A DNA stretch of 32,250 nt from Pseudomonadota bacterium. GTDB taxonomy: Bacteria; Pseudomonadota; Gammaproteobacteria; Burkholderiales; SCOH01. The position numbers were made by a program, and so were the translations under genes. Positions 2,332 through 27,086 of the stretch are shown in pieces (positions within the stretch are counted from its first letter, which is position 1; each line of letters opens with the position of its first letter). The notes below the pieces were generated by a model that was not told the DNA's origin, did no database searches, and saw only the letters and a list, made by a program, of their open reading frames with translations. Where the stretch lies: contig JAUPTR010000156.1 of assembly GCA_030917985.1 (NCBI GenBank), forward strand, positions 1-32,250, in the 5' to 3' direction.

Positions 2332-5859
<3,528 letters not shown>

Positions 5860-5866
5860 AACCATC

Positions 5867-7336
5867 ATGAATCAAGTTACGCGAGAAACCATTCTCATTG
5901 TCGACGACATGCCGGAGAACATCAGCATTCTGGCTGAAATCCTGCGTCAGGACTATCGCGTGACCTTTGCCACCAACGGCCCGGATGCACTTGCCGCTGC
6001 CCGCGAAAAACCCAGGCCGGGGCTGATCCTGCTGGATGTAATGATGCCGGGCATGAGCGGCTACGAGGTGTGCCAGCAATTGAAGACATTGCCGGAAACC
6101 GCCGGCATCCCGGTGATTTTCCTCACCTCCAGGGCGGATGTCAGCAACGAGGAAATCGGCTTGCAGATGGGTGCGGTCGACTACCTGCACAAGCCGTGTC
6201 ACCCGGCTATCGTCCGGCAGCGCGTGCGTAACCACCTGGCCCTGCACAACTACACGCAGGCGCTGGAGCTGCGCGTGCACGAGCGCACCCGCGAGCTGGA
6301 ACAAACCCGCATCGAAATCATCCGCCGCCTGGGGCGGGCAGCAGAATACCGCGACAACGAAACCGGCATGCACGTATTGCGCATGAGCTCGTGCTGCCAC
6401 AAGCTGGCGATTGCTGCAGGGTTGTCAGCGGAGCGGGCCGAATTGTTGCAATTGGCAGCGCCAATGCACGATATCGGCAAAATCGGCATTCCCGACCATA
6501 TCCTGCTGAAACCGGGCAAGCTCGACAGCGACGAGTGGGCCACCATGCAACGCCACGTGGAAATCGGCGCGGAAATCATCGGCGAACACCGCTCCGAACT
6601 GCTGGCGATGGCGCGGCTGGTGGCCCTGACACATCACGAACGCTGGGACGGCCACGGCTACCCGCACCACCTGGCCGGAGAAGACATTCCGATCGAGGGG
6701 CGCATCTCGGCCATCTGCGATGTCTTCGACGCCCTGCTCAGCAAGCGTCCCTACAAGGAGGCCTGGCCGGAACAGCAGGCGGTTGACTTTATCATCTCCC
6801 AGTCCGGCAAGGCTTTTGATCCGGCACTGGTGAATCTGTTTATCGAACTGGTGCCGGAGCTGAACCGGATTCGCAGCCTGTATCTGGATGAACCTGCGGA
6901 GCAGGCGCAGGCACAGAAGCTGGTACAGCTGATCTACGTCAGCGCCGCGCGGCAGGAGATGGATCAGGCGACGCTACTGCAGATACTCGACAGCGCAATC
7001 CGCCATAACACCCGCAACAAACTCAGCGGCATGCTGCTGTATGCCCGCGGCTCCTTCATCCAGGTGCTGGAAGGCAGTGAAACCGCAGTTGCAGAAACCA
7101 TGCGCCGCATCTGCGACGACCCGCGCCATCACGATATCCAAACCCTGACGCAAGATGTCATCAACGAACGCGAGTTTGCCCAGTGGGCCATGGGTTTTCA
7201 TTGCCTGAACCGTGATGACGTGGCAAAACACCCGCATTTCACCCTGTTTCTGGAAAGAGGCTTCGATCCCGCCGACATCAACGCAACGCCCGGCATTGCG
7301 ATGGCTTTGCTGAAACAGTTTGCCAACCAGGCGTAA
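5867..7336 (+). CDS. Response-regulator receiver + HD-GYP phosphodiesterase + C-terminal BLUF domain protein
   Basis: 489 aa. REC aa 8-122 (LILLDVMMPGMSG). HD-GYP aa ~150-330 (HDIGKIGIPDHILLKPGKL; HHERWDGHGYP). BLUF aa 352-445. Starts 7 nt after the hybrid kinase stop. Confidence 0.9.
   Translation: MNQVTRETILIVDDMPENISILAEILRQDYRVTFATNGPDALAAAREKPRPGLILLDVMMPGMSGYEVCQQLKTLPETAGIPVIFLTSRADVSNEEIGLQMGAVDYLHKPCHPAIVRQRVRNHLALHNYTQALELRVHERTRELEQTRIEIIRRLGRAAEYRDNETGMHVLRMSSCCHKLAIAAGLSAERAELLQLAAPMHDIGKIGIPDHILLKPGKLDSDEWATMQRHVEIGAEIIGEHRSELLAMARLVALTHHERWDGHGYPHHLAGEDIPIEGRISAICDVFDALLSKRPYKEAWPEQQAVDFIISQSGKAFDPALVNLFIELVPELNRIRSLYLDEPAEQAQAQKLVQLIYVSAARQEMDQATLLQILDSAIRHNTRNKLSGMLLYARGSFIQVLEGSETAVAETMRRICDDPRHHDIQTLTQDVINEREFAQWAMGFHCLNRDDVAKHPHFTLFLERGFDPADINATPGIAMALLKQFANQA
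6920..7201 (+). other. BLUF (blue-light FAD sensor) domain-coding segment of the 5867-7336 gene
   Basis: LIYVSAA..RHNTRNKLSGMLLY..FIQVLEGS..DDPRHHDI..FAQWAMGF. Tyr357, Asn381, Gln399, Trp440 and Met442 have the same spacing as AppA Y21/N45/Q63/W104/M106. Confidence 0.8.
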
Positions 7337-8133: not shown

Positions 8134-8568
8134 ATGAACAAAGTGAATAACGTTAAGCGCACATTCTCCACCGGTTTCACCTTGCTGGAACTGCTGATCG
8201 CATTGGTCATCATCGGTCTGCTGGTGGGCGTGGTAGCGCCCAATCTGTTCAAAAACGTTGGCAAATCTGAAGTTACCACCGCCAAGCAGCAGATCGAATC
8301 GCTGTCGAAGGCCATCGACCAGTATCGCCTCGACACCGGCCATTTCCCTTCCACCGAACAGGGCCTGGCTGCGCTGAACCAGAAACCAGCCGACGAACCG
8401 AAATGGAACGGCCCGTATCTGAAGAAAGAAGCACCGCTTGATCCGTGGGGCAAGGCCTATATTTACAAGGCGCCGGGCGAGCATGCCAACGATTACGACC
8501 TGAGCTCGCTGGGCAAGGATGGCAAACCAGGTGGAGAAGGTGAAGCCGCCGATCTCGGCAACTGGTAA
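8134..8568 (+). CDS. gspG: Type II secretion major pseudopilin, GspG-like
   Basis: Prepilin leader and cleavage/methylation site ...FSTG|FTLLELLIALVIIGLL. GspG body: AKQQIESLSKAIDQYRLDTGHFPSTEQGLAAL, WNGPYLKK, LDPWGKAYIYKAPGEH..DYDLSSLGKDGKPGGEGEAADLGNW. Confidence 0.92.
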   Translation: MNKVNNVKRTFSTGFTLLELLIALVIIGLLVGVVAPNLFKNVGKSEVTTAKQQIESLSKAIDQYRLDTGHFPSTEQGLAALNQKPADEPKWNGPYLKKEAPLDPWGKAYIYKAPGEHANDYDLSSLGKDGKPGGEGEAADLGNW

Positions 8569-8818
8569 AACCTGAACACGATCCTGCTGCACGGCCCTGA
8601 TCGGGACTCATGCGCTGCTCAAAACACACAAGGTACGCCCAGTTCTAGCCTTGCCATGCTCGGCAAGAATCCGGGGCAGTCCTCATGTACTACAGTACAT
8701 TCCGGTTTTTGCGCTGCTCTTCATCCCGCTGAGGGCCGTTCGCGACGGATCGAGCCCAGGTTTACCCCTGTTTGGCGATATACAACCCTGAGATAGATTC
8801 TGAAACACACTGATCTGC

Positions 8819-10003
8819 ATGCAACAGTTTGAAGTCAAAGCGCTGAAAGCCCAGTCAGTTGTCGTACTGAAACTGGATGCCGCCAGCAGCGACGATGCCC
8901 GCAACCAGGCCACCCAGCAGGGCGTGCGGGTGATCTCGGTGCACGCGCTGCGTCAGGGCTGGATGCCGGCCTGGCGCGCGCAGCGTTTTAATCTGGTGCT
9001 GTTCACGCAGGAGCTGCTGGCGCTGCTGGATGCGGGTCTGTCGCTGATCGAAGCAGTGGAAACACTGGCGGAAAAGGCACACGACGAGAGCCAGGATGTG
9101 CTGCGCAAGCTGACCGAATCGCTGTATCAGGGCCAGTCTCTATCGCAAGCGTTGCAGCATTTTCCGCAGGCTTTCCCCGAGCTGTATGTTGCCAGTGTGC
9201 GCGCCTCGGAAAAAACCGGCGACATCGTGCCGACGCTGCAACGTTTCGTCACTTATCAGCAGCAGGCCGACACGATTCGCAAGCAGATCATCTCGGCGTC
9301 GATTTATCCAGCGGTGGTGTTTGTGGTCGGCATTGTGGTTGCCTTGTTCCTGCTGGTCTATCTGGTACCGAAATTCAGCCGCATTTATGAAGACATGAAC
9401 AGCGACCTGCCCTTTCTCTCGCGCATGTTGCTGAAATGGGGCAGTTTCGCCAGTGACAATATGTCGCTGGTGTTGCTCGGCATCGGCGGCATGACTGCAC
9501 TGGCCATCTACGCCGCCAGCAACGCCCAAGCCCGCGCCCGCGCGCTGACCTTGTTGTGGCGCATCCAGTCGCTGCGCGAGCGCTGGTATCTGGTGCAATT
9601 GTCGCGCCTGTACCGCTCTGCCGGCATGTTGCTGCGTGGCGGCATTCCGGCCGTCACCGCGTTCAGCATGGTTGGCGGCCTGTTGCACCCCACCCTGCGG
9701 CCACGGCTGGACAAGGCGATCAGCCGCATCCGCGAAGGCCAGCCGATTTCACTGGTGATGCAAAGCTGCGAGCTGACCACGCCGGTGGCAGTGCGCATGC
9801 TGCGGGTGGGTGAAAAGAGCGGCAAAATGGGCGACATGATGGAGCGTATCGCGCTGTTCTATGATGAGGACACCGCGCGCTGGGTGGATGTATTCACCCG
9901 CGTGTTTCCGCCTTTGCTGTTACTGATTATCGCGCTGTTCATCGGCACGATTGTGGTGAGTATGTACATGCCGATTTTTGAACTGGCCGGAGGCCTGCAA
10001 TGA
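8819..10003 (+). CDS. gspF: GspF/PilC-family inner-membrane platform protein
   Basis: 394 aa with the duplicated T2SSF repeat architecture and 3 TM segments. N-terminus MQQFEVKALKAQS... is typical of GspF. Stop overlaps the ATG of the next gene (ATGA at 10000-10003). Confidence 0.9.
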   Translation: MQQFEVKALKAQSVVVLKLDAASSDDARNQATQQGVRVISVHALRQGWMPAWRAQRFNLVLFTQELLALLDAGLSLIEAVETLAEKAHDESQDVLRKLTESLYQGQSLSQALQHFPQAFPELYVASVRASEKTGDIVPTLQRFVTYQQQADTIRKQIISASIYPAVVFVVGIVVALFLLVYLVPKFSRIYEDMNSDLPFLSRMLLKWGSFASDNMSLVLLGIGGMTALAIYAASNAQARARALTLLWRIQSLRERWYLVQLSRLYRSAGMLLRGGIPAVTAFSMVGGLLHPTLRPRLDKAISRIREGQPISLVMQSCELTTPVAVRMLRVGEKSGKMGDMMERIALFYDEDTARWVDVFTRVFPPLLLLIIALFIGTIVVSMYMPIFELAGGLQ

Positions 10004-11667
10004 GCCGTATCAGCCTTGGTGATATCCAGGCTGCGCGCCAGACCATGCGCACCAGCGGCGAACCGTTCTGGGATGCCCTGCGCCAGCGCGTGCCATTGCA
10101 GAACGGCGAACTGCTGCGGGCCGTGGGCGAAGCGCTGAAAATGCCGACGCTGGCGATGCGCGAGATGCAGCAACTGACCCCGGCTTTCGACCTGATCGCC
10201 TACGCCGATGCGCTGCAGCGCCAGTGTATTGCCTTCCGCGATGCGCAAGGCGAATTGCTGCCGGTAATCGGCACCCCGTTTGATGCGGCATCAATCCAGT
10301 GGGCAGAAACCCGCCTGCCGGCAGCCGGTATCTGGCATCTGGCCGAGCCGGCGGATATCGTTGCCTATCTCTCCAGTTATGAAGAAACCCAGCGCGCCAT
10401 TGATGGCGTGCTGAATCAGGGCAGCGAAGGCACCGGCCAGAGCGCCAACGTTGAAATCATTTCGCTCGCCAGCATTGCCGAAGACAGCAGTCAGACAGTC
10501 AAGGCGGTCAACTCCACACTCTACGACGCGCTCAAGTCGCTGGCTTCCGACATCCACCTGGAAACCACACCCGGCGGGCTGACGGTGAAATACCGCATCG
10601 ACGGCGTGTTGTGCCACGTTGGCCAGATTGGCGGGCTGGACATGGCGGAGCAGGTGATTTCGCGCCTGAAGGTGATGTCGGAACTGGACATTGCCGAACG
10701 CCGTGTGCCGCAGGACGGGCGTTTCAAGATTTCCGTGAACAACCGCGAAATCGACTTCCGCGTCTCGATCATGCCCAGCCTGTTTGGCGAAGATGCGGTG
10801 CTGCGGGTGCTGGACAAACAATCGCTGGCCGACCAGATGAAAAGCCTGCGGCTGGAAACGCTCGGCTTTGATGCACCCACCGTGGAAATGATGCGCAAGC
10901 TGGCGCAGGAACCTTACGGCATGTTGCTGGTAACCGGCCCGACCGGCTCGGGTAAATCCACCACGCTCTATGCCGCCATTTCCGAAGTCAACAACGGCCA
11001 GGACAAGATCATCACCATTGAAGACCCGGTGGAATACATGCTGCCGGGGGTGCTGCAGATTCCGGTCAACGAGAAAATAGGCCTGACTTTTGCGCGCGGC
11101 CTGCGTTCGATCCTGCGTCACGATCCGGACAAGATTCTGGTGGGCGAGATCCGTGATGCCGAAACCGCACAGATTGCGGTGCAGGCGGCGCTCACCGGCC
11201 ACCTTGTCTATACGACAGTGCACGCCAACAGCGTGTTCGACGTGATCGGCCGCTTCGCCCACATGGGTGTCGACACCTACAGCTTCGTCTCCGCACTCAA
11301 CGGCATTCTGGCGCAACGACTGGTGCGCAAGATCTGCGAACACTGTGCCGAGCCGTATCAGCCAGATCACCAGCTAATGCTCGATTCCGGCCTCGATCCG
11401 GATAAAGTCAGCGACTTCACCTTCCGCCTCGGCCGTGGCTGTGGCCATTGCCGTGGCACCGGCTACAAGGGCCGCAAGGCGCTGGCGGAAATCCTCAAAC
11501 TCAACGACACGCTGCGCGAGCTGATCATCAGCCGCGCCCCGGTCAGCCAGCTGAAAGAAGCGGCGCGCAAGGCCGGCATGCGTTCGCTGCGCGACATTGC
11601 CATCAGCACCGTGCGTAGCGGTCAAACCACATTGCAGGAGATCAACCGTGTTACGTTTGTCTCCTGA
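10000..11667 (+). CDS. gspE: GspE/PilB-family secretion ATPase
   Basis: 555 aa. Walker A GPTGSGKSTT, Asp box IITIEDPVEY, Walker B ILVGEIRD, His box TGHLVYTTVHAN. Tetracysteine zinc motif CEHC...CGHC. Confidence 0.93.
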   Translation: MSRISLGDIQAARQTMRTSGEPFWDALRQRVPLQNGELLRAVGEALKMPTLAMREMQQLTPAFDLIAYADALQRQCIAFRDAQGELLPVIGTPFDAASIQWAETRLPAAGIWHLAEPADIVAYLSSYEETQRAIDGVLNQGSEGTGQSANVEIISLASIAEDSSQTVKAVNSTLYDALKSLASDIHLETTPGGLTVKYRIDGVLCHVGQIGGLDMAEQVISRLKVMSELDIAERRVPQDGRFKISVNNREIDFRVSIMPSLFGEDAVLRVLDKQSLADQMKSLRLETLGFDAPTVEMMRKLAQEPYGMLLVTGPTGSGKSTTLYAAISEVNNGQDKIITIEDPVEYMLPGVLQIPVNEKIGLTFARGLRSILRHDPDKILVGEIRDAETAQIAVQAALTGHLVYTTVHANSVFDVIGRFAHMGVDTYSFVSALNGILAQRLVRKICEHCAEPYQPDHQLMLDSGLDPDKVSDFTFRLGRGCGHCRGTGYKGRKALAEILKLNDTLRELIISRAPVSQLKEAARKAGMRSLRDIAISTVRSGQTTLQEINRVTFVS

Positions 11668-12439
11668 CGTGATCGCCGTTGGCCTCTCGCCCGCCGGGCT
11701 GGTGATGAGCCGCATCAACCGCCTGACGCGCCGTGAAAAGCGCCATCAGGCACTGCAGTTTCCCTGCAGCCTGACGCTGGCAGAGGCACTGGAACAGCTC
11801 GGGCAGCAGCTGGCGCAAGCAGAATGGCAAGCTGCCGCCGGCCTGCGGCTGGTGTTGTCCAACCACTGGCTGCGTTTTGCCGTGGTGCCCTGGAGCGAGC
11901 AGCTGGCCAGCCCGGCAGAGCGGCAGGCGCTGGCGCAAGGCCTGATCGAAGAGCTGTATGCAGAAAAAGCCAGCCGCTTTGTGATTCGCATCAGCGAATG
12001 CGGCTACGGCCGGCCGGGGCTCGCCGCAGCGCTGCCACAGGCAGAACTGCAACAACTGCAGGCACTGGCACAGCAACATGGTCTGGCGCTGCAATCGCTG
12101 CGCCCGCTGCTGATGGAAGCGTTTGCCCAGCAGCCACACAATTTGCGCGGCAATGACGGCGCGCTTGCCTGCCTCGAACCCGGTAAGCTCACCTTGCTGC
12201 TGCAGCAGAATGGCTGCTGGCAACAGGTGCTCAGCCGCAGCCTGGCCTTGCAGCAGCCCGGCGCATTGGCACCATTGCTGACACAAATGTTTGCCCAGCT
12301 CGAACAACTCCCGGCGCAAGTGCTGCTCGCCTGCCATGGCGTGGACAGCCGCCTGGATTCGGTTGCCGGTGTGCCGGTGCAGATGCTGGCGCCCGCCCCC
12401 AACTGGCCTGCGCCAGTGCTGCAAATGGCAGGAAGCTGA
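11648..12439 (+). CDS. Cytoplasmic assembly protein, PilM / GspL-cytoplasmic-domain-like (tentative)
   Basis: Position directly after gspE. No TM segment, about 263 aa. Start taken as the GTG at 11648 (20-nt overlap with gspE) rather than the ATG at 11597 (71-nt overlap). No diagnostic motif is visible by eye, so the assignment rests on gene order and size. Confidence 0.5.
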   Translation: MLRLSPDVIAVGLSPAGLVMSRINRLTRREKRHQALQFPCSLTLAEALEQLGQQLAQAEWQAAAGLRLVLSNHWLRFAVVPWSEQLASPAERQALAQGLIEELYAEKASRFVIRISECGYGRPGLAAALPQAELQQLQALAQQHGLALQSLRPLLMEAFAQQPHNLRGNDGALACLEPGKLTLLLQQNGCWQQVLSRSLALQQPGALAPLLTQMFAQLEQLPAQVLLACHGVDSRLDSVAGVPVQMLAPAPNWPAPVLQMAGS

Positions 12440-12440
12440 C

Positions 12441-12956
12441 ATGGCCCATCTCGATCTCGATTTTGTCCGCACATCGGCCCGCTGGCCGTGGCTGGGCGCC
12501 TGTCTGGCGCTGCTGGCGCTGTTGGCACTGGGCTGGGTCTGGCAACACGGCAACACGCTGGGGCAGCAAATCCGCCAGCTCGATACGCAGCTTGAGCACT
12601 CCCGGCAACAAGTGCGCGAACGCAACAAGCCGGTGGCGGCGGAAGATCCGCAACAACTGGCCGCCGCCTTTGCCCTGCGCCGCCAGTGGCGCACCGACTG
12701 GAATGTATTGTTCGAGGCGCTGGAGCAGGCACAGTTCAAGGGCATTGCGCTGCAGCAAATCGCGCCGGATGCGGCCAAGAGCCAGCTGAAACTGGCCGGC
12801 GAAGCCTTGTCTGAAGCCGATCTGCACGACTATCTGCGACGCCTGCAACAAACCGGCCGCCTGCGCGAGGCGGTGTTGAGCCAGAGCGGCATTGACGAAA
12901 CACAGCCACACAAGCCGATCCAGTTCCAGATTCAGGCCGAATGGGTGCAGCCATGA
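12441..12956 (+). CDS. Bitopic inner-membrane assembly protein, PilN-like (tentative)
   Basis: ATG at 12441, 1 nt after the upstream stop. Short cytoplasmic N-terminus, one TM (WPWLGACLALLALLALGWVW), a coiled-coil segment, then a periplasmic alpha/beta region. This is the PilN/GspL-periplasmic layout. Confidence 0.55.
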   Translation: MAHLDLDFVRTSARWPWLGACLALLALLALGWVWQHGNTLGQQIRQLDTQLEHSRQQVRERNKPVAAEDPQQLAAAFALRRQWRTDWNVLFEALEQAQFKGIALQQIAPDAAKSQLKLAGEALSEADLHDYLRRLQQTGRLREAVLSQSGIDETQPHKPIQFQIQAEWVQP

Positions 12957-13486
12957 GTCAACTGATCTGGATTCTGCAACACTGGCGTAGTTATCTCGGC
13001 GTAGTCGGCCTGGCGGGCTTTAGCTGCCTGTGTCTGGCACTGGTGCTGCTGCTGATGTGGCTGCAACCGCTGCGCCATCAGCAACACACATTGGCCCAGG
13101 ATCTGGCCGCGCTGCAGCGGCCAGACGTGCAAAATCAGCAAAGTGAACGCCAAAGCCTGCGGCTGGCCGATTTCTACCGGCAGTTTCCGCACCTCAACAG
13201 CGCGCCCGACTGGCTGGATCAGATCGACCAGAAGCTGCGCGCGCACAAACTGGTGCTGAAACAGGCCGATTACAAACTGGTGCGCGAACGCAACAGCCCG
13301 CTGCTGCGTTATCAGCTCAATCTGCCGGTGAGCGGCGATTATCTGGAAATCCGCGCCTGCCTGCAGGAACTGCAGCAGAGCATGCCGTTCCTGATCATTG
13401 AAGACGTGACATTGGAGCGCGACAGCACCACACAAACCGTGGTGCAGGCCAAGCTGCGCCTGAGCCTGATGTTTGGAGGCAGCTGA
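12953..13486 (+). CDS. Bitopic inner-membrane assembly protein, PilO/GspM-like (tentative)
   Basis: ATGA overlap with the upstream gene (12953-12956). One TM (YLGVVGLAGFSCLCLALVLLLMWL) followed by ~130 periplasmic aa. Size and topology match PilO/GspM. Confidence 0.5.
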   Translation: MSQLIWILQHWRSYLGVVGLAGFSCLCLALVLLLMWLQPLRHQQHTLAQDLAALQRPDVQNQQSERQSLRLADFYRQFPHLNSAPDWLDQIDQKLRAHKLVLKQADYKLVRERNSPLLRYQLNLPVSGDYLEIRACLQELQQSMPFLIIEDVTLERDSTTQTVVQAKLRLSLMFGGS

Positions 13487-14061
13487 TGCAGAGCAAGCGT
13501 ATCCTGCTGCCGGCACTGGCCATCACTGTCGCTTTGTCCTTGTGGGTAAGCCTGCGCCCGGCGCCCGAAGATGATGTGGAACTGGCACGGCCAAAACGGG
13601 CAGCCAGCACACCGGCCCAGCCGCCAGCCGAAAACCGCAAACCGGCCGGCAACACGGCAGCCAGCAACGCGCCACCGCCAGACAACAGCAATATGCCGCA
13701 GGAATGGCAACTACGGCATGAAGGTGCCAATGCCGCGCAGGTGAACCTGTTTGCCAGCAACACGCCGGCCGCGCCGGTGCTGGTGGATGGAGTGGAAGCC
13801 GGCAAGCCGGCAAAACCGGCCAAGGCGCCCCCGCCCCCGCCACCGATGGCACCACCGCTGCCGCTGCAGTATCTGGGGCGCATGCTCGACGGCAGTGTGG
13901 CGCAACTGTTTGTCAGCCATAACGGCGACAACCTCGCCTTAAAACCGGGCGACACCGTGGCCGGCAGTTACCGGCTTGACAGCATCCAGACCAACCGCGC
14001 GGTATTCACCTACATGCCGCTGAACCAGACGCAAACCATGATTTTCGGGGAACAGCCTTGA
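13486..14061 (+). CDS. Periplasmic Pro-rich linker protein, PilP/GspC-like (tentative)
   Basis: 1-nt overlap with the upstream stop. N-terminal signal/anchor (ILLPALAITVALSLWVSL), long Pro/Ala-rich linker (KPAKPAKAPPPPPPMAPPLP). C-terminal beta-rich module YLGRMLDGSVAQLFVSHNGDNLALKPGDTVAGSYRLDSIQTNRAVFTY, as in secretin-binding PilP/GspC HR domains. Confidence 0.45.
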   Translation: MQSKRILLPALAITVALSLWVSLRPAPEDDVELARPKRAASTPAQPPAENRKPAGNTAASNAPPPDNSNMPQEWQLRHEGANAAQVNLFASNTPAAPVLVDGVEAGKPAKPAKAPPPPPPMAPPLPLQYLGRMLDGSVAQLFVSHNGDNLALKPGDTVAGSYRLDSIQTNRAVFTYMPLNQTQTMIFGEQP

Positions 14062-16391
14062 AGCACACAAAACTGACAATATGCTGGGTGTTGATCGCCA
14101 GCCTGCTCGGGGGCTGCGCCAACGACCTCAAATATCGCGATGCCAAACGCCTGCAGGCCGAAAACAAGCCGGAAGAAGCGATGCAGGTACTGGAATCGCT
14201 GACCTTCGAATACCCACAGCACAGCGAATACAAATCGGCGCTGGCCACGCTGCAGGAGCGCCAGTCGAACCGCCTGCTGGCCGAGGCCGACAACTACCGC
14301 ATCACCGAAGATTTTGCCAACGCCGCCATCACCTATAACAAGGTGCTGAAGTTCCAGCCGGGCTCGCCACGCGCCCGTGCCGGCCTGGAAAACATCGAGC
14401 GCGACCGCCGCCATGCCAGGCTGCTGGCCGAAGCCGACACGGCCATGCGCAAAAAGGATTACGACGCAGCGCTCGACGAACTGAACCAGATACTCGACGA
14501 AAACCCGGCACACGCCAAGGCCAAAAGCCTGAAGCGACAGATCGACAACACCCGCAACCGCGAAGCCATCGCCAGCAGCCCGCTGAAAGCCGCACTGAAA
14601 AAGCCGATCACGCTGGAGTTCCGCAATGCACCGATCCAGTCGATTTTCGAGGTGATTTCGCGCAGCGCCGGGGTCAGCTTCATTTTTGACCGCGACTTGC
14701 GCAGCGACCTGAAAGCCACGTTGTTTGCCCGCAACACATCGGTGGAAGATGCCATCAATGTGCTGCTGGCCACCAATCAGCTGGAAAAGAAAATCCTCAA
14801 CGACTCCACCCTGCTGATCTACCCGAACCAGCCGGCAAAGCAGAAGGAATACCAGGATCTGGTGGTGAAGAGTTTCTACCTCGGCAACGCCGACCCGAAA
14901 CAGACACTCAACCTGATCAAGACCGTGGCCAAAACCCGCGATGTGTATATCGACGAACGCCTCAATATGCTGGTGATGCGCGATACGCCGGAAGCCATCC
15001 GGGTTGCCGAAAAACTCATCGCTGCGCAGGATCTGGCCGAGCCGGAAGTGGTGCTGGAAGTGGAAGTGCTGGAAGTGTCCACCGCCTTCCTGATGAACCT
15101 CGGCCCGCAGTTTACTGACAAAGTCAGCGTCAGCGTCAACCCCACCAGCAATGCCGACGGCAGCACCAGCAGCGGCAAGCTGACCTGGGATCAGGTAAAG
15201 AACTTCAACAGCGGTATGGTCAGCGTCAATGTCGGCGATCCGGCAGCGGTGTTCCACATGAAAAACACCACCGGCGACACCAATGTGCTGGCCAATCCGC
15301 GCATTCGGGTAAAAAGCCGCGAAAAAGCCAAGGTGCATGTGGGCGACAAGGTGCCGGTGATCACCACCACCACCAACGGCACCAGCGGTGCCATTTCCGA
15401 GAACATCAGCTACCTCGATGTGGGCGTGATGCTGGAAGTGGAACCGCAGGTGTATCTCGACAGCGATGTCGGCATCAAGGTGGGGCTGGAAGTCAGCAAC
15501 ATCGTCAAGGAAATCACCTCGAAAAACGGCCTGGTGGCCTATCAGGTGGGTTCGCGCAAGGCCAACACCGTGCTGCGCCTCAAAGACGGCGAAACCCAGG
15601 TGCTGGCCGGCCTGATCAGCAAGGTCGAGCGCGAAAATGCCGACCGCCTGCCCGGCCTCGGCAATATCCCCGGCCTGGGGCGCCTGTTCTCACGCGTCAG
15701 CAACGACAACTCCAAATCCGAGATCGTTTTGCTGATCACGCCGCGCATTGTGCGCACGCTGGCACTGCCGGCGGCGGCCGACAGCGAATTCATGTCCGGC
15801 ACCGAAGCCGATATCAGCACCCGGCCGCTGCGCCTCAAACCGGCGGCGGCGGTGGATGTGCGTGGTGCCGATGCCGGCAGTGGCACAGTGGCATCCGGCA
15901 TGCAGGCTGGCAGTACCGGCCAGTACATGAGCCCGCAACTGCTGCCACCGGAAAGCCCGCAACCGTTTAACCCGCCGCAAGCCGCTGCCGGCGCCACAGC
16001 GCTCAAGGTATCGCTCAGTTCGCCGCAGCGGGCGCGGGTTGGCAGCGAATTCAGCGTCAGCGTAATCGCTGAAGTCGATACCCCGGCATCTGCCGTGACA
16101 ACCGACGTGATCTATAACCCGGCTTATCTGGAAATGACCAGCGCACGCGCGGGTGACCTGAGCCGCAACGCACAGTTCGACAGCAAGAATGCCCCCGGCC
16201 GGGTGATGCTGAGTGTGCAGAAACAGGATGGCCTGCGTGGCCGCGGCCCGCTGGCCACGCTCACCTTCCGCGTCAAGGAAAAAACCAATCTGCCGCTGTG
16301 GCTGGGCATCGGCCAGGTACAGGCCAGCTCGCTGCAAGGCACCGAAATGCCGGTATCAGCGGCCGAGCCGCGCAGTCTGGAAGTGGAATGA
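14058..16391 (+). CDS. Outer-membrane secretin (GspD/PilQ family) lipoprotein with N-terminal TPR region and C-terminal cohesin-like domain
   Basis: TTG start at 14058 overlaps the upstream TGA. Lipobox LLGG|C (Cys20, nt 14115-14117), then TPR-like helical repeats aa ~25-170. N-domains: ITLEFRNAPIQSIFEVISRSAGVSFIFD...; VVKSFYLGNADPKQTLNLIK...LVMRDTPEAIRVAEKLI. Secretin core: VLEVEVLEVS...NVLANPRIRVKSREKAKVHVGDKVPVITTT...LPGLGNIPGLGRLF...SEIVLLITPRIV. A Pro/Ala linker precedes the cohesin-like module. Confidence 0.9.
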   Translation: MKHTKLTICWVLIASLLGGCANDLKYRDAKRLQAENKPEEAMQVLESLTFEYPQHSEYKSALATLQERQSNRLLAEADNYRITEDFANAAITYNKVLKFQPGSPRARAGLENIERDRRHARLLAEADTAMRKKDYDAALDELNQILDENPAHAKAKSLKRQIDNTRNREAIASSPLKAALKKPITLEFRNAPIQSIFEVISRSAGVSFIFDRDLRSDLKATLFARNTSVEDAINVLLATNQLEKKILNDSTLLIYPNQPAKQKEYQDLVVKSFYLGNADPKQTLNLIKTVAKTRDVYIDERLNMLVMRDTPEAIRVAEKLIAAQDLAEPEVVLEVEVLEVSTAFLMNLGPQFTDKVSVSVNPTSNADGSTSSGKLTWDQVKNFNSGMVSVNVGDPAAVFHMKNTTGDTNVLANPRIRVKSREKAKVHVGDKVPVITTTTNGTSGAISENISYLDVGVMLEVEPQVYLDSDVGIKVGLEVSNIVKEITSKNGLVAYQVGSRKANTVLRLKDGETQVLAGLISKVERENADRLPGLGNIPGLGRLFSRVSNDNSKSEIVLLITPRIVRTLALPAAADSEFMSGTEADISTRPLRLKPAAAVDVRGADAGSGTVASGMQAGSTGQYMSPQLLPPESPQPFNPPQAAAGATALKVSLSSPQRARVGSEFSVSVIAEVDTPASAVTTDVIYNPAYLEMTSARAGDLSRNAQFDSKNAPGRVMLSVQKQDGLRGRGPLATLTFRVKEKTNLPLWLGIGQVQASSLQGTEMPVSAAEPRSLEVE
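16000..16388 (+). other. Cohesin-like beta-sandwich module at the secretin C-terminus
   Basis: ALKVSLSSPQRARVGSEFSVSVIAEVDTPASAVTTDVIYNPAYLEMTSARAGDL...GRVMLSVQKQDG..GRGPLATLTFRVKEK. This follows the cohesin type-I pattern (V.V....G..F.V.V......A..F.L.YD...L). Confidence 0.6.
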
Positions 16392-16864
16392 CAGCGCCCC
16401 GGCCACGCGGCTTCACCCTGATCGAAATTCTGGTCACACTGGCGATTCTCGGCATTCTCGCCAGCATTGCCGTGCCACTGGTGCAGATCAACGCGCAACG
16501 CGCCAAAGAGGTAGAGCTGCGCGCCGCACTGCGCGAGATTCGCGGCGGTATCGATGCCTACAAACAGGCCGTGGACGATGGCCGGGTGCCCAAAGCCGCC
16601 GACGAAAGCGGGTATCCGAAAAAGCTGGAAGACCTGAGCAAGGGCGTGGAAGACCAGAAATCGCCGAGCAAGCAGAAAATCTACTTCCTGCGCCGCATCC
16701 CGCGTGATCCGATGGCACCCTCCGGCGGCAGCGATAGCGACAGCTGGGGCCAGCGCAGCTATAAAAGCCCGCCAGACGATCCCAAAAGCGGCGACGATGT
16801 CTACGACGTGTATTCACGCTCGGCGGCCAAAGGCCTCAACGGCGTACCCTACCGGGAATGGTAA
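16388..16864 (+). CDS. Pseudopilin with prepilin-type N-terminal cleavage/methylation site (GspG-like paralogue 1)
   Basis: ATGA overlap with the secretin stop. MTAPRPRG|FTLIEILVTLAILGILASIAVP. GspG-like helix AKEVELRAALREIRGGIDAYK. C-terminus ...DVYDVYSRSAAKGLNGVPYREW. Confidence 0.85.
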   Translation: MTAPRPRGFTLIEILVTLAILGILASIAVPLVQINAQRAKEVELRAALREIRGGIDAYKQAVDDGRVPKAADESGYPKKLEDLSKGVEDQKSPSKQKIYFLRRIPRDPMAPSGGSDSDSWGQRSYKSPPDDPKSGDDVYDVYSRSAAKGLNGVPYREW

Positions 16865-16866
16865 GC

Positions 16867-17247
16867 ATGCCAGATCCACGCAAAGCCGGTTTCACCCTGA
16901 TTGAACTGCTGGTGGTGATGGCCATCATCGCCACCCTGCTCACCATTGTTGCCCCCCGCTACATGGGCAGTATCGACCGCAGCAAGGAAACCGCACTCAA
17001 GGAAAACCTCAACACCCTGCGCCAGAGCATCGACAAATATTACGGCGACAACGGCCAGTATCCGGCCACGCTGGATGCGCTGGTCGAAAAACGCTACATC
17101 CGCCAGGTGCCGCTCGACCCGATCACCGAGCGTAACGACAGCTGGGTGACAAGCCCCCCGCCCGACAAGGATCAGACCGGTGTTTATGATGTACACAGCG
17201 GCGCCGCCGGCAAAGCCAGCGATGGACGGCCTTATGCGGAATGGTAA
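16867..17247 (+). CDS. Pseudopilin with prepilin-type N-terminal cleavage/methylation site (GspG-like paralogue 2)
   Basis: MPDPRKAG|FTLIELLVVMAIIATLLTIVAP; KETALKENLNTLRQSIDKYYGDNGQYPATLDAL; C-terminus GVYDVHSGAAGKASDGRPYAEW. The ATG at 16867 is preferred, but the in-frame ATG at 16858 is possible. Confidence 0.85.
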   Translation: MPDPRKAGFTLIELLVVMAIIATLLTIVAPRYMGSIDRSKETALKENLNTLRQSIDKYYGDNGQYPATLDALVEKRYIRQVPLDPITERNDSWVTSPPPDKDQTGVYDVHSGAAGKASDGRPYAEW

Positions 17248-17782
17248 ACACAAACAGCAGGGTGTCGCCTACCTCGGCCTGATGTTTGTGGTGCTGTTCA
17301 TGGGCATGATGGTTGGCACCTATATCGAAAGCTGGAGCACCACCGCCCAGCGCGAACGCGAAACCGCCCTGCTCTGGACCGGCAACGAATACCGCAAGGC
17401 GATCCGCAACTATTACGAACTCAGCCCCGGCGGCAACAAGCAATACCCGAAATCACTCGACGACCTGCTCGAAGACAAGCGTTTTGTCACCGTGCAGCGC
17501 CACCTGCGCCAGCGTTATCGCGATCCGCTAGGCAGCAAGGACGACTGGACGCTGATTACCGACGCCAACGGCCAGATCACCGGCGTCGCCAGCAGCTCGC
17601 CACGCAAACCACTGAAAATCGCCAACTTCAGCCCGGAAAACCAGGATTTCAAAGGCCGGCAACATTACAGCGACTGGAAATTTGTCTACACCCCAAGCGC
17701 CACCCAGACAGGCACACCCGGCACCCCGCCGGGCATCAATCCGGGCCAGCCACCCGGCCCTGCCCCGCAGCCGGGCAAATAG
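17234..17782 (+). CDS. Atypical pseudopilin-like protein (no Glu at +5) with a Pro/Gly-rich C-terminal tail
   Basis: Start chosen at MRNGKHKQQG|VAYLGLMFVVLFMGMMVGTYI (14-nt overlap with the upstream gene). It has the leader plus hydrophobic helix of a type IV pilin-like protein, but VAYLG replaces FTLxE. The tail is TGTPGTPPGINPGQPPGPAPQPGK. Confidence 0.6.
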   Translation: MRNGKHKQQGVAYLGLMFVVLFMGMMVGTYIESWSTTAQRERETALLWTGNEYRKAIRNYYELSPGGNKQYPKSLDDLLEDKRFVTVQRHLRQRYRDPLGSKDDWTLITDANGQITGVASSSPRKPLKIANFSPENQDFKGRQHYSDWKFVYTPSATQTGTPGTPPGINPGQPPGPAPQPGK

Positions 17783-20175: not shown

Positions 20176-20520
20176 ATGGCAAGCCACGCTACACTGCACA
20201 TCCAGTTTCCCGCTGATCCACAACTCAAAGCCAGCGTCACCTCGCTGTTCAAGACACTCGAACGCGATTTCAGCGAAATCCATCTGCGTGAACATGCGGC
20301 AGAGCTGGGTGCGGAGGCGCTAGCAGAGGTTGAACGCCTGCTGGGCGTGTTTCCGCTGGAGTATTTCAGGGTGGACGATTACGTCAAACAGAACGGCGAA
20401 CTGCGCGTGACATTCAATATCCCGCACAAGCCGAATGATTTTCTGCCCGCATGGGCTGCCCTGCTGAAACGGGCCGGCGTAGATGCCCGAGGCGGCGGCA
20501 TGGATATCGATCCGGATTAA
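20176..20520 (+). CDS. Hypothetical 114-aa protein, 2 nt upstream of the FapA/DUF342 gene
   Basis: AGGAG at 20166-20170, 5 nt before the ATG at 20176 (the ORF track starts earlier, at 20059). Stop is at 20518-20520 and the next ATG at 20523. No recognisable motif, no TM segment, acidic C-terminus. Confidence 0.55.
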   Translation: MASHATLHIQFPADPQLKASVTSLFKTLERDFSEIHLREHAAELGAEALAEVERLLGVFPLEYFRVDDYVKQNGELRVTFNIPHKPNDFLPAWAALLKRAGVDARGGGMDIDPD

Positions 20521-20522
20521 AC

Positions 20523-22151
20523 ATGGATGACGGTGAGCAGCGCCTGCCCAAGCTGACGCTTGAGGCTCAGGAACATCGCCTGAGCGCGACATTTACGCCT
20601 GGCGCGGGCGTGGTGCCGCCAACGCAGGAGCAAGTGCAGCAACTGCTGCAACAGCAGGGCTATGGTAACTGGCATGTCGAGCAAAAGGCACTGCAGGCGT
20701 TTATCAACAGTTGCCGCCAGGCCACACACGCCATCAGCGCTGATATCGGCGAACAGCGCGATGCCGAGTTCATTTTCAATATTTCATCCGACAAGCTCAG
20801 CCTGTATCTGACCTTGCTGCCGGCCGAAGGTGGCGAGCCGATTGGCGACAAGGTGGAACAGGCGCTGATGCAGCAAGGCATTCTGCACGGCATTCTGCGC
20901 GACGAGCTGGATGCCGCGCTCGCCAAGGGCCAGTGCGAAAACGTGCTGATTGCCCAGGGCGACCCGGTTCAGCCGTCGCGCGAAGCCAGTTTCGTCAGCC
21001 TGCTCGACAATATCCGCAATCGCAAACGCCACTCCGATGCCGACAAGGTGGTGGATTTCCGCGATCTGGGCAATCTGCTGATCGTGCAGCCGGGCGATGC
21101 GCTGATGCGGCGGATTCCGGCACAGCCCGGCAAAAACGGCATTGATATCTTTGGCCAGAGCATTCTCGCCGAAGCGGTGCAGGACACGCCCTTCCCCGCC
21201 AGTATCAAAGGCGCGCAGCCCGCCGACGACGACCCCGATCTGCTGCTGGCAAGCAGCCCCGGCCAGCCGGTGCAGCACGATAATTGCGTGGTGGTGAATC
21301 CGGTGATCGAAGTCGCCAATGTCGATCTCGACAGCGGCAACATCACTTTTGAAGGCACGGTGCGGGTGCTGGGCGATGTGAAAGCCGGCATGCACCTGAT
21401 TGTGACCGGTGACGTGCTGGTGGAAGGCACGGTGGAATCCGCCGAAGTGGTGGCCGGTGGTGATGTGTCGGTGAGAGGCGGCGTGATTGGCCATGCGGAA
21501 GTTGTCGCCGGCTCGCTGGAGCGCCCGGATGCTGCCAGTCGTATCCGCTGCGGTGGCTCGCTGCAGGCGCTGTTTCTGGAAAACACCCATGTCGAGGCGA
21601 GCAAATCGATTCTGGTGGAAAACAGCGTGCGCCAGTGTGACCTGACCGCAGGCCACACCATCCAGGTCGGCAAGGCAGGCAACAAGCTGGGGCACATCAT
21701 CGGCGGCCGCTGCCGCGCCACTCACACCATTCACGCCGGCAGCATCGGCACCAGCGCGGGCACGGCCACCAGAATCCTGGTTGGATTTGACCCTTATCTG
21801 CACAGCGCACTGCTGGCGAAAGAGAAAACCATCAAGGCGAAACAGGCTGAATTACATCAGCTGGAGCAACTGCTGACCTTTCTGGCGCAAAACCCGCATA
21901 AGGATAAGGGTGGCATCGGTTCCAAGGCCGAACACACACGTGAAAAGCTGCTGCAGGACCTGGCCGATACGCAACAGGCACAGCAAAACCTGGCGGAACG
22001 CCTGAATCTGGCCAGCCACGCGCGGGTGATCAGAGAATTAGCCATCTACAGCGGCGCAGAGATCCATATCGGCAACACCGTGTGTCATGTGCGAGAAGAT
22101 GCCGGCGCGATGACACTGATGCTGGCCGACGACAAGATCGTGCTGGAATAA
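20523..22151 (+). CDS. FapA-family (DUF342) protein
   Basis: 542 aa from MDDGEQRL.... N-terminal FapA_N-like region (LSATFTP...PTQEQVQQLLQQQGYGNW.V...ALQAFI). Central beta-helix repeats GNITFEGTVRVLGDVKAGMHLIVTGDVLVEGTVESAEVVAGGDVSVRGGVIG. C-terminal coiled coil. Confidence 0.85.
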   Translation: MDDGEQRLPKLTLEAQEHRLSATFTPGAGVVPPTQEQVQQLLQQQGYGNWHVEQKALQAFINSCRQATHAISADIGEQRDAEFIFNISSDKLSLYLTLLPAEGGEPIGDKVEQALMQQGILHGILRDELDAALAKGQCENVLIAQGDPVQPSREASFVSLLDNIRNRKRHSDADKVVDFRDLGNLLIVQPGDALMRRIPAQPGKNGIDIFGQSILAEAVQDTPFPASIKGAQPADDDPDLLLASSPGQPVQHDNCVVVNPVIEVANVDLDSGNITFEGTVRVLGDVKAGMHLIVTGDVLVEGTVESAEVVAGGDVSVRGGVIGHAEVVAGSLERPDAASRIRCGGSLQALFLENTHVEASKSILVENSVRQCDLTAGHTIQVGKAGNKLGHIIGGRCRATHTIHAGSIGTSAGTATRILVGFDPYLHSALLAKEKTIKAKQAELHQLEQLLTFLAQNPHKDKGGIGSKAEHTREKLLQDLADTQQAQQNLAERLNLASHARVIRELAIYSGAEIHIGNTVCHVREDAGAMTLMLADDKIVLE

Positions 22152-25806: not shown

Positions 25807-26940
25807 TCACACCGCCACCATCAAACCCGCCGCCATCGTCCGGTTGCGGCCACTTTCTTTCGCCCGATACAAGGCGTCGTCAGCGCGCTGAAACATCCGG
25901 TCCGGATCTTCGTGGCGAATATATTCCGCCACGCCCAGCGACACGGTCACCCGCAGTTCGGTATCTACCGCGTAATAACGGCTGCGTTCAACCGCCAGGC
26001 GGATGCGCTCGGCGGTGATACGAGCTCCTGCCAACGGCGTTTGCGGCAGCAGGATGGCAAATTCTTCGCCACCATAACGGCACAATACATCGGTCTGGCG
26101 CAATTCGGCCTGGGCAATTTCCGCCACCCGTTTCAACACCAGATCGCCCGCCAGATGGCCGTAGTCGTCATTCACATTTCTGAAGAAATCGATATCCAGC
26201 ATACACAGCGACATCGCGCCGCCATGGCGGTCGGTGCGCATACTCTCCAGCCGTAATACGTCGCGCAGATGGCGGCGATTGAATACGCCAGTGAGTTCAT
26301 CGCGGATTGCCATATCGCGTATTGTCTGCAGCGCCACCTCCAGCTCCTGGTTACGCGCCTCCAGCTCGCTATTCTTGGTATTGAGCTTGCGCCGCAACTT
26401 GCCAATATAGCCGCCGAGAATACTGATCTGCAGCAGCGTCACGGCAAACGCCACCCCCATCAGCATTTCCACCCGCAACTCCACCTGCGTCGGCTGGTAA
26501 ACCGCCAGCAAGGCAATCATCGCCGCGTAGCCAGACAGCGCCAGCAAAGTCATCGCCATGAACTGCCGGGTACGAAACTGGAACAAGCCATAGAGATACG
26601 CCGACACCGCCAGCAATAAAAATGCCCCGCGCGCCGGCCCGGCATGAAACATCACGTAAAACACCGGCAAGATCGACGCCAGCAACTGCGCAAACGTCAG
26701 ACTTGGATCGGCAAAACGCAAATTGAAACCGGAACGGATTGCGATATAAAACGCCAGATTGATCGGAATCATCAAGGCGAGATACGCCACCACCACCGGC
26801 CAGGCAAAAAACCCCAGATGCCAGCACGACAAGGTCAACAGCAACGTAAAGCCATACGAGCCAAAGGCCAGGTACAAGCGTCGCAGGCGCAGCGCCTGCT
26901 GTGTGGCTAATTTGGTGTGAGGGGCGGATTCGATATTCAA
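25807..26940 (-). CDS. Membrane-anchored diguanylate cyclase (GGDEF) with RxxD inhibitory site
   Basis: Five to six TM segments, a coiled-coil linker, then the GGDEF domain (DIDFFRNVNDDYGHLAGD; RYGGEEFAILL). I-site RQTD lies 5 residues before GGEEF. Start set at the TTG (complement of 26938-26940), preceded by GGAGAA. The upstream ATGs at 27039/27066 run into a REP element. Confidence 0.85.
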   Translation of the reverse strand: MNIESAPHTKLATQQALRLRRLYLAFGSYGFTLLLTLSCWHLGFFAWPVVVAYLALMIPINLAFYIAIRSGFNLRFADPSLTFAQLLASILPVFYVMFHAGPARGAFLLLAVSAYLYGLFQFRTRQFMAMTLLALSGYAAMIALLAVYQPTQVELRVEMLMGVAFAVTLLQISILGGYIGKLRRKLNTKNSELEARNQELEVALQTIRDMAIRDELTGVFNRRHLRDVLRLESMRTDRHGGAMSLCMLDIDFFRNVNDDYGHLAGDLVLKRVAEIAQAELRQTDVLCRYGGEEFAILLPQTPLAGARITAERIRLAVERSRYYAVDTELRVTVSLGVAEYIRHEDPDRMFQRADDALYRAKESGRNRTMAAGLMVAV

Positions 26941-27020
26941 CGGGGTTCTCCGACGTATGCTTGAGTTATCGACCAATACCCTGGGAAATGCAGGTTGAGT
27001 TGCGACAACAGGCCATTGCG

Positions 27021-27086
27021 CTGCAAGCCGCACCCACATTGCCTCACAGTCTGGTCTGCAGGCCAATACCAGAGCGGCGTGCAGCC
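27021..27086. repeat. Degenerate inverted pair of family-B REP-like units (BIME-like)
   Basis: 27021-27043 CTGCAAGCCGCACCCACATTGCC resembles the reverse complement of the family-B unit (CTGCAAGCCGCGCCGGTATTGGC). 27055-27086 TCTGCAGGCCAATACCAGAGCGGCGTGCAGCC resembles the forward unit. Located in the divergent GGDEF/coaBC intergenic region. Confidence 0.5.

Follow-up and report, generated by a model that had tools for sequence, protein, structure and literature searches.

What does an operon build when it mixes the hallmarks of type II secretion systems (T2SSs) and type IV pili (T4P) and appears to lack several canonical genes? The question is raised by 11 intact open reading frames (ORFs), all on the + strand, at positions 8134 to 17782 of a 32,250-nucleotide (nt) stretch of contig JAUPTR010000156.1 (assembly GCA_030917985.1, a Pseudomonadota bacterium of the order Burkholderiales); this whole stretch is referred to below as the window. 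We designate the genes, in order, G, F, E, X1, X2, X3, X4, D, PP1, PP2, and PP3. A preliminary description of the sequence had pointed to the mixture of hallmarks, and the family searches agree: G passed the GspG model, E scored almost equally on the GspE and PilB models, and X2 passed the PilN model. Our preferred interpretation, to which we assign a probability of roughly 60%, is that the operon encodes a complete and compact type IV filament machine, most likely a dedicated T2SS-like exporter. The four "hypothetical" genes appear to be equivalents of GspL, GspM, and GspC (PilM/N/O/P), which makes the machine complete rather than defective.

The four small proteins between the ATPase and the secretin

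Four small genes separate the ATPase gene from the secretin gene: X1 (11648 to 12439; 263 amino acids [aa], GTG start), X2 (12441 to 12956; 171 aa), X3 (12953 to 13486; 177 aa), and X4 (13486 to 14061; 191 aa). The GTG start of X1 was backed by the N termini of its orthologues. The preliminary description had recognized in these proteins a topological series consisting of a cytoplasmic protein, bitopic proteins, and a Pro-rich periplasmic protein. This series was recovered, with no hydrophobic segment in X1 and one N-terminal segment each in X2, X3, and X4.

X1 of the window had no match in Pfam or NCBIfam, a Pfam scan of 43 orthologues also returned nothing relevant, and a profile of these orthologues found no match among PDB sequences even at an E value of 10. 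Its AlphaFold2 (AF2) model, computed from an alignment of nine sequences, reached a predicted local distance difference test score (pLDDT) of 83.9 and a predicted template modeling (TM) score of 0.81. Foldseek matched this model to PilM (5eoy; E = 3e-10) and to cytoplasmic EpsL (1yf5; E = 3.4e-10, TM score on the target of 0.57). The best structural matches also included an actin-like protein of unknown function, GspL (4pht_X), and PulL (5tkw), with FtsA ranking after these. The model thus suggests a cytoplasmic actin-like protein, which would be a stand-alone equivalent of cytoplasmic GspL or a short PilM.

X2 has one transmembrane segment (residues 15 to 36) and scored above the gathering threshold of the Pfam PilN family (32.7 versus 22.8 bits); its match to the GspL C terminus was weak. 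The family consensus contains a conserved cytoplasmic N-terminal peptide, MxxLxLDF, that resembles the PilM-binding peptide of PilN. X2 belongs to the PilN family, is bitopic, and corresponds to the portion of GspL that lies in the membrane and periplasm. X3, also with one transmembrane segment (residues 13 to 41), scored above the gathering threshold of Pfam T2SSM_b (23.6 versus 21.7 bits) and below threshold for PilO (18 versus 22 bits) and for NCBIfam GspM_XpsM (28.9 versus 60 bits); we read it as a bitopic GspM/PilO-like protein.

The AF2 model of X4 comprised a transmembrane helix, a Pro-rich disordered linker, and a C-terminal beta-domain (pLDDT >90 for residues 121 to 188). The top 13 Foldseek matches of the beta-domain were exclusively GspC homology region (HR) domains, PilP, LspC, or GspB; the best was the GspC HR domain 3oss_C (TM score on the target of 0.83, E = 4.7e-3, root mean square deviation of 2.5), followed by PilP. 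Weak sequence signals were concordant (PilP, E = 0.24; GspC_delta, E = 0.002; T2SSC in 1 of 40 orthologues), and a Pfam scan of the orthologue set gave stray matches only. X4 is accordingly modeled as a putative transmembrane-anchored connector with a GspC-HR/PilP fold and without a PDZ domain.

Comparisons with single sequences gave little signal. Alignment of the X1 and X4 profiles with E. coli GspL, HofM, GspC, and HofP by hhalign yielded nothing significant (best, X4 versus HofP, E = 0.0013, probability of 19%), nor did alignment of the X1 profile with the first upstream ORF of the mannose-sensitive hemagglutinin (MSH) pilus locus of Aeromonas, the presumed MshI candidate. We judged hhalign against single sequences too insensitive to weigh against the fold results. 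A phmmer comparison of the window proteins with the E. coli Gsp/Hof set likewise returned no signal for X1 to X4 or PP3.

Natural fusions of X1 and X2 were found among the best 150 of 2271 representative X1 relatives: P0216 (445 aa) and P0274 (450 aa), with hhalign probabilities of 99.9% to the X2 profile. These fusions are rare and rebuild a GspL-like architecture. It is established that PilM and PilN together are the counterpart of GspL, PilO that of GspM, and PilP that of the GspC HR domain; "PilM/N/O/P-like" and "split GspL, GspM, and PDZ-less GspC" are therefore two names for the same four proteins. The assembly platform of this machine appears complete, with the folds present in a different architecture. 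The earlier view that GspC, GspL, and GspM are missing was thus not upheld, given the cytoplasmic GspL/PilM fold of X1, the T2SSM_b match of X3, the GspC-HR fold of X4, and the X1-X2 fusions. Confident hidden Markov model (HMM) matches to GspC, GspL, or GspM, which the preliminary description had named as evidence that would count against it, were obtained only marginally, for X3; the resemblance of X1 and X4 is structural and does not come from HMMs.

Core machinery and the ATPase branch

G (8134 to 8568; 144 aa) scored 174 bits on the GspG equivalog model TIGR01710, above the cutoff of 88.85 bits, and matched Pfam T2SSG with an E value of 4.7e-42. It aligned over its full length with eight solved GspG structures (top match, 2kep; 2.6e-24). 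The protein carries the prepilin motif G/FTLLE, and its C-terminal segment (...DLSSLGKDGKPGGEGEAADLGNW) aligns with the globular domains of solved GspG structures. These similarities identify G as a major pseudopilin of the true GspG type.

F (8819 to 10003; 394 aa) contains two Pfam T2SSF repeats (E = 4.4e-51) and four hydrophobic segments. Its scores were under every curated cutoff, including those of GspF (245.9 versus 424 bits), HofC, and PilC (171 to 181 versus 700 bits for the PilC models), and it is predicted to be a polytopic inner-membrane platform protein of the GspF/PilC family. E (10000 to 11667; 555 aa), the putative assembly ATPase of the GspE/PilB/MshE class, matched Pfam T2SSE (E = 7.4e-124), and its translation shows a Walker A motif (GPTGSGKST) and a CxxC...CxxC tetracysteine motif. 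Its two best equivalog scores were nearly tied and both under the cutoff (GspE, 488.5 versus 630.25 bits; PilB, 480.8 versus 675.65 bits). Among solved structures, PilB scored 366 bits and EpsE 352 bits, and the Pfam MshEN N-terminal domain scored 22.6 bits, just under its threshold of 23.1. Of the ATPase, platform, and major subunit, which the preliminary description had called T2SS-like, G passes the GspG equivalog, E ties between GspE and PilB, and F falls below the cutoffs.

E of the window is 36 to 39% identical to GspE, 34 to 36% to PilB-type ATPases, and 37% to MshE. We built a neighbor-joining tree (21 sequences, 493 columns, 500 bootstraps) with references taken from annotated records: GspE, EtpE, and HofB of E. 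coli; GspE of Ralstonia and Acinetobacter; PilB of Acinetobacter; PilF of Neisseria; MshE of Aeromonas; a cyanobacterial homologue; and a plasmid T4b-like ATPase. The operon family, canonical GspE, and PilB/PilF were each recovered alone with 100% bootstrap support. The family joined GspE in 6% of bootstraps, PilB/PilF in 2%, and MshE in 57%. Its single clade (100%) united the window with Ralstonia, Cupriavidus, Thauera, Nitrosospira, Variovorax, and others. The tree supports a distinct branch outside canonical GspE and PilB; because the sampling is thin and the method simple, it cannot place that branch.

The MshE, PilF, and PilB references came from plasmid-collection records L092 (Aeromonas caviae NZ_AP026896.1), L082 (Neisseria gonorrhoeae NZ_CP119140.1), and A. 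baumannii records of 3.7 to 4.1 Mb. Several records of 1.0 to 4.9 Mb in this collection resemble whole or partial chromosomes filed as plasmids.

The grouping with MshE (57%, against 6% for canonical GspE) would suit a true surface pilus, that is, an MSH-like adhesive or biofilm fiber with G as the fiber subunit and PP1 to PP3 as its tip, although the grouping depends on one reference in a neighbor-joining tree. An accessory set of separate PilM/N/O/P-type proteins would also fit a pilus, but the major subunit is a bona fide 144-aa GspG above the equivalog cutoff, and no genes for a retraction ATPase, a PilY1/MshQ-like tip adhesin, MshM, or MshN were found. The secretin scores alike on the PilQ and GspD models, yet MshL was the lowest of the three secretin models (105 bits). 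Finally, a cyclic di-GMP (c-di-GMP)-type regulator (REC-HD-GYP-BLUF) and a hybrid kinase are encoded just upstream in the window, but these regulators are not conserved with the operon. We consider a surface pilus unlikely, though it is the main alternative to the exporter.

Secretin and cohesin module

D (14058 to 16391; 777 aa, TTG start) matched Pfam Secretin (6.9e-39) as well as STN, Secretin_N, TPR_19, and Cohesin (28.7 versus 24.1 bits). From the N terminus, it consists of TPR, STN/N0, one Secretin_N domain, the secretin core, a linker rich in Pro and Ala, and a cohesin at the C terminus. Scores were under the cutoffs of all secretin equivalogs (GspD, 146.7 versus 351.35 bits; PilQ, 146.4 versus 284.35 bits; MshL, 105.2 versus 250.2 bits), and solved structures of GspD and PilQ scored 89.5 and 81.8 bits, respectively. 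Cys20 was invariant in 16 homologues. D is predicted from these features to be an outer-membrane secretin and a lipoprotein anchored at Cys20.

Of 78 family loci, 38 encode a secretin with a fused cohesin. At three other loci (L016:14332-15291, L039:13329-14300, and L046:15622-16674, all on the - strand), an X4-like HR domain and a cohesin were combined in a separate protein, encoded just downstream on the opposite strand, and the secretin had no cohesin. Both arrangements would place the cohesin in the periplasm beside the secretin, and we view it as a candidate periplasmic docking module.

Minor pseudopilins

PP1 (16388 to 16864; 158 aa) and PP2 (16858 to 17247; 129 aa, or 126 aa from the ATG at 16867) both carry the canonical motif G/FTLIE, and their best E. 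coli match was GspG. PP1 matched N_methyl (36.7 bits) and the PDB GspG structure 5wda (2e-8, residues 9 to 138), and PP2 matched N_methyl, part of T2SSG, and PDB structures. Both were below the cutoff of the GspG model (50.4 bits for PP1 and 61.8 bits for PP2) and far below those of the GspH, GspI, and GspJ models (15 to 26 bits versus cutoffs of 44 to 80 bits). They are minor pseudopilins paralogous to GspG.

PP3 (17234 to 17782; 182 aa) had no family match. Its class III signal peptide has no Glu5 (QQG/VAYLG in the window; family consensus, QxG/FTYLxLL). In an alignment of 47 sequences, the Gly was invariant and no Glu occurred at +5. N_methyl was detected in 3 of the 47 orthologues, whose Pfam matches were otherwise stray, and PP3 weakly matched pilin N termini. 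Glu5 is invariably absent from PilK/GspK homologues, which occupy the apical position (PMC13533445). We infer that PP3 is a pilin-like tip or initiator subunit. On the basis of the gene order and the Glu5-less PP3, PP1 to PP3 probably stand in for the GspI/J/K initiation complex. The preliminary description had found no pseudopilins of GspH-to-GspK size. This applies to GspK (327 aa) alone, as the 158, 129, and 182 aa of PP1 to PP3 compare with 169, 125, and 195 aa for E. coli GspH, GspI, and GspJ.

Operon structure and conservation

Spacings were recomputed for all junctions, and 9 of 10 are overlaps or 1-nt gaps. Overlaps of 4 nt link F to E, X2 to X3, and D to PP1 (ATGA in each case) and X4 to D (TTGA); E overlaps X1 by 20 nt, X3 overlaps X4 by 1 nt, and PP2 overlaps PP3 by 14 nt. 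X1 and X2 are 1 nt apart, and PP1 overlaps PP2 by 7 nt or, with the alternative PP2 start, precedes it by 2 nt. The genes are translationally coupled along the operon, and both the 11 ORFs and the junctions listed earlier were confirmed. On contigs with an identical secretin, public gene callers returned the same gene set from X1 to PP3 (263, 171, 177, 194 to 196, 777, 158, 126, and 182 aa), with PP2 starting at the ATG equivalent to window position 16867. The bounds of the operon coincide with the block kept across genomes.

The sole real gap, 250 nt between G and F (8569 to 8818), has a minimum free energy of -90.3 kcal/mol (z = -3.69 versus shuffled sequence) and no Rfam match. Elsewhere in the family this spacer measures about 0 to 40 nt (25 nt in the Ralstonia copy), so that in the window it is a local insertion or a regulatory or stabilizing element. 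Across the window, promoter and terminator scans gave background levels only, Rfam and tRNA scans gave no match, and a similarity search against E. coli DNA gave no match.

Database searches with the secretin returned more than 6800 homologues at E values of ≤1e-10. A scan of species-representative genomes returned at least 583 relatives, of which the best 80 were taken as loci L001 to L080. Nearly all of these 80 are labeled Betaproteobacteria, with carriers in Thauera, Thiobacillus, Nitrosospira, Gallionella, Sideroxyarcus, Janthinobacterium, Massilia, Duganella, Variovorax, Rhodoferax, Herbaspirillum, Vogesella, Jeongeupia, and others. The preliminary description had proposed a check of synteny across Betaproteobacteria, and the layout proved collinear in most of the 80 genomes. 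In tblastn searches with the 11 window proteins, the order G-F-E-X1-X2-X3-X4-D-PP1-PP2-PP3 was recovered wherever the contig was long enough, and all seven easily detected genes were collinear at 45 loci. A median of 2371 nt separated the stop of E from the start of D, which leaves room for four small genes. Identities to the window proteins were 40 to 87% for G, F, E, D, and PP1 to PP3 and 25 to 65% for X1 to X4. At two loci (L015 and L060), the block that starts with G-F-E-X1 runs opposite to D-PP1-PP2-PP3, which indicates that a break between X4 and D can leave the operon as two units, divergent or convergent.

This conservation bears on whether the cluster could be a decaying, nonfunctional duplicate of a T2SS or T4P cluster. 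Decay might explain why the cluster had been described as lacking several canonical genes, but the "missing" functions are present in divergent form. Several components without a family match could likewise be taken for remnants, but the 11 ORFs are intact and translationally coupled, their order is kept across dozens of genera at 25 to 87% identity, and the X1 family alone comprises >2000 clusters (2271 representative clusters) at 50% identity. Such conservation already contradicts decay, which we find hardly credible.

The architecture has been published before. Within the Ralstonia solanacearum species complex, an "unorthodox T2SS" with seven core genes was described, and one of the two clusters has four hypothetical genes that separate gspE from gspD (PMC5080846, PMC6428702). 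The cluster with the four hypothetical genes is on the chromosome and a second seven-gene cluster is on the megaplasmid, and the four middle genes were treated as hypothetical inserts with no function given (PMC5080846). The R. solanacearum megaplasmid CP022791.1 has the same 11-gene order and sizes, annotated as gspG, two T2SS proteins, four hypothetical proteins, GspD, two GspG proteins, and one hypothetical protein, and the deposited annotation shows the same pattern of 4-nt overlaps, including the 14-nt overlap of PP2 and PP3. This record was matched by layout and may represent either of the two published clusters. A related cluster occurs on the megaplasmid of Cupriavidus metallidurans CH34, where F, E, X4, and D were detected.

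Gene for gene, the window shows the order of the unorthodox T2SS (G-F-E, four small genes, D, and three further genes), and orthology is indicated by the ATPase clade (100% bootstrap) and by full-length secretin identities of 40 to 71% within the family. The window operon is thus an ordinary member of a known and widespread betaproteobacterial family. The literature that we found on the unorthodox T2SS consisted of genome comparisons only, with no functional study, cargo, or phenotype. In a survey of type IV filament systems, Denise et al. left 884 "generic" systems unassigned (PMC6668835). The earlier suggestion of a distinct, probably uncharacterized branch consequently holds in that the family has its own ATPase clade and no functional study was found, and needs amendment in that the architecture is published for Ralstonia.

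Genomic surroundings

Upstream of the operon, the window encodes a hybrid histidine kinase (2332 to 5859), a REC-HD-GYP-BLUF regulator (5867 to 7336), and a small membrane methyltransferase; downstream are an S-adenosylmethionine (SAM) methyltransferase and a thioredoxin-like protein. None of these flanking genes is kept beside the operon in other genomes. The first two genes (2332 to 7336, +) encode a 1175-aa kinase and then an unusual mix of REC, an HD-GYP-type HD domain, and BLUF (a blue-light FAD domain), a regulator that ties light sensing to c-di-GMP turnover. The window also encodes a FapA-family protein with N-terminal and beta-solenoid domains (20451 to 22151, +), a GGDEF diguanylate cyclase (25807 to 27066, -), and a 533-aa ORF without a Pfam or NCBIfam match (28926 to 30527, -). 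With FapA, GGDEF, and HD-GYP proteins, the neighborhood is rich in c-di-GMP functions. Two ORFs considered as pilB, pilC, or pilD, of 566 aa (at 20451) and 399 aa (at 22257), proved to be the FapA-family protein and a CoA-transferase instead.

A scan of 31 large ORFs from across the window found no prepilin peptidase, and the earlier statement that the window holds neither a peptidase nor an obvious substrate gene agrees with these scans. Clustering of 488 flanking ORFs from 72 loci revealed no conserved peptidase, retraction ATPase, or candidate cargo; the commonest flanking families were LuxR-type regulators and a lytic transglycosylase.

ORFs with a PEP-CTERM tag were found within 10 kb of the secretin at 13 of the 80 loci, often following PP3 directly and in the same orientation. 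Examples are L058:5245-5742, L074:13758-14255, L073:11709-12635, L071:15504-16373, L047:15478-17397, L048:14408-15187, and L009:15812-16984. The machine might accordingly be the route by which a class of tag-sorted surface proteins (PEP-CTERM/exosortase substrates) is exported or displayed at the outer membrane, with the cohesin as their receptor. However, the window has no PEP-CTERM ORF, the frequency of 13 of 80 would be only marginally above the background expected from PEP-CTERM gene counts, and no exosortase gene was present among the conserved neighbors. As for the receptor, the cohesin is absent from half of the family. The parallel would be the dependence of rhombosortase (GlyGly-CTERM) and MYXO-CTERM proteins on a T2SS, a link that concerns other tags. 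The association is too weak to claim and serves as a lead, and we hold the PEP-CTERM route to be very unlikely.

A dedicated exporter as the preferred interpretation

An exporter is favored by the lack of a retraction ATPase, an adhesin, or a large tip protein in the operon or its conserved flanks. In the mechanism that we propose, X1 would bind two partners, E at its N-terminal domain and X2 at its conserved N-terminal peptide, coupling the ATPase to the membrane, and X2 and X3 would dimerize in the periplasm. The HR domain of X4 would dock on the secretin's N0 domain, thereby aligning both membranes. PP1, PP2, and PP3 would form an initiation (tip) complex with PP3 at its apex, beneath which E and F would polymerize G. 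The resulting pseudopilus, short and periplasmic, would push folded cargo from the periplasm out through D. The prepilins would be cleaved by a peptidase encoded elsewhere, probably PilD of the T4P. D may be self-piloting because it is lipid anchored, for which the lipoprotein secretin HxcQ provides a precedent. The cohesin, on D in about half of the family and on an HR protein in a few members, would be a candidate docking site replacing the PDZ domain of GspC, and the cargo would be encoded away from the operon.

Several observations weigh against the exporter. The accessory functions are divided over separate proteins, as in pilus systems (PilM/N/O/P); E, F, and D are all under the T2SS equivalog cutoffs, and the ATPase clade joins canonical GspE in 6% of bootstraps and the MSH-pilus ATPase, weakly, in 57%. 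D has a single Secretin_N domain, unlike the N1-N3 series of GspD. No GspH, GspI, GspJ, or GspK homology was detectable by sequence in PP1 to PP3 with the family models or the E. coli set. No cargo gene was found, no flanking family occurred in more than 12 of the 72 loci, and both the role of the cohesin and the protein-protein contacts proposed above are inferred.

Taken further, such features could define a separate type IV filament family rather than a derived T2SS, type IVa pilus (T4aP), or MSH system. Its marks would be an ATPase clade outside all three, GspG-like subunits, a three-protein initiation complex, a PilMNOP-like platform, and a cohesin, fused to the secretin or to a GspC/PilP-like protein, in place of the PDZ domain as the site where cargo docks, and it may serve PEP-CTERM-like surface proteins. 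We rate a separate family as quite unlikely.

With its split GspL, its GspC-like protein without a PDZ domain, and its three small minor pseudopilins, the operon is a minimal T2SS-like design found in nature, and it could inform studies of pseudopilus initiation and cargo recognition. Carriers span plant pathogens (Ralstonia), nitrifiers (Nitrosospira), sulfur and iron oxidizers (Thiobacillus, Gallionella, and Sideroxyarcus), denitrifiers (Thauera), and soil and water Oxalobacteraceae. The family is annotated inconsistently, as GspD, PilQ, or "hypothetical," and a complete machine offers a clear genetic target in tractable hosts.

Comparison with known systems

The MSH system resembles the window operon in its ATPase, in that the Aeromonas MshE is weakly the nearest relative of the clade (57% bootstrap), and in TPR content tied to the secretin region, MshN being a TPR protein. 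The gene order differs, and no homology to MshM, MshI/J/K, or MshA/B/C/D/O/P/Q was detected. Membership was rejected because the MshL score is low (105.2 versus 250.2 bits) and the accessory genes are absent.

The likeness to the T4aP lies in PilMNOPQ: four separate proteins of the same order, topology, and folds stand directly upstream of the secretin, and X2 passes Pfam PilN. However, X1 falls short of PilM by about 90 residues, with no PilM family match among 43 orthologues, X4 is transmembrane anchored rather than a lipoprotein, and the secretin has TPR in place of AMIN. The major subunit is GspG and not PilA, and PilT/PilU, PilY1, and minor pilins of the FimU/PilVWX type are lacking. The PilB, PilC, and PilQ models are under their cutoffs, and no PilT-like gene lies in the window.

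With canonical T2SSs, the window system shares a GspG-type pseudopilin, a GspE-class tetracysteine ATPase, a GspF platform, an N0 secretin, a GspM-like protein, the cytoplasmic GspL and GspC HR folds, the lack of a retraction ATPase, and a likely piston mechanism. It differs in that GspL is split over two genes and the GspC-like X4 has no PDZ domain or coiled coil; GspH, GspI, GspJ, GspK, and GspN are not detectable by sequence. Its secretin, a TPR lipoprotein, has a single Secretin_N domain and frequently a cohesin as well; E, F, and D score below the equivalogs, and the ATPase falls outside the GspE clade. The gene order is G-F-E...D, in contrast to C-D-E-F-G-H-I-J-K-L-M of canonical T2SSs.

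The closest counterpart is the Ralstonia unorthodox T2SS (CP022791.1), which shares the gene order, sizes, overlaps, and a GspD with a C-terminal cohesin; the secretins are 40% and the ATPases 60% identical. The Ralstonia copy adjoins an Rhs gene, whereas the window copy adjoins the kinase and HD-GYP-BLUF pair.

Shewanella vesiculosa HM13 carries a second, reduced T2SS-like cluster without recognizable GspCLM, GspHIJ, or GspN, whose gspD2 was required experimentally for the correct localization of a single cargo on vesicles (PMC6971210). Compared by its published description, this cluster differs from the window operon in its order (G2-E2-F2...K2...D2), its GspK-like gene, its gammaproteobacterial host, its adjacent cargo gene, and its embedding among polysaccharide genes. 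Both are reduced clusters, and the need for the S. vesiculosa cluster in cargo placement is a precedent showing that such clusters can be dedicated exporters.

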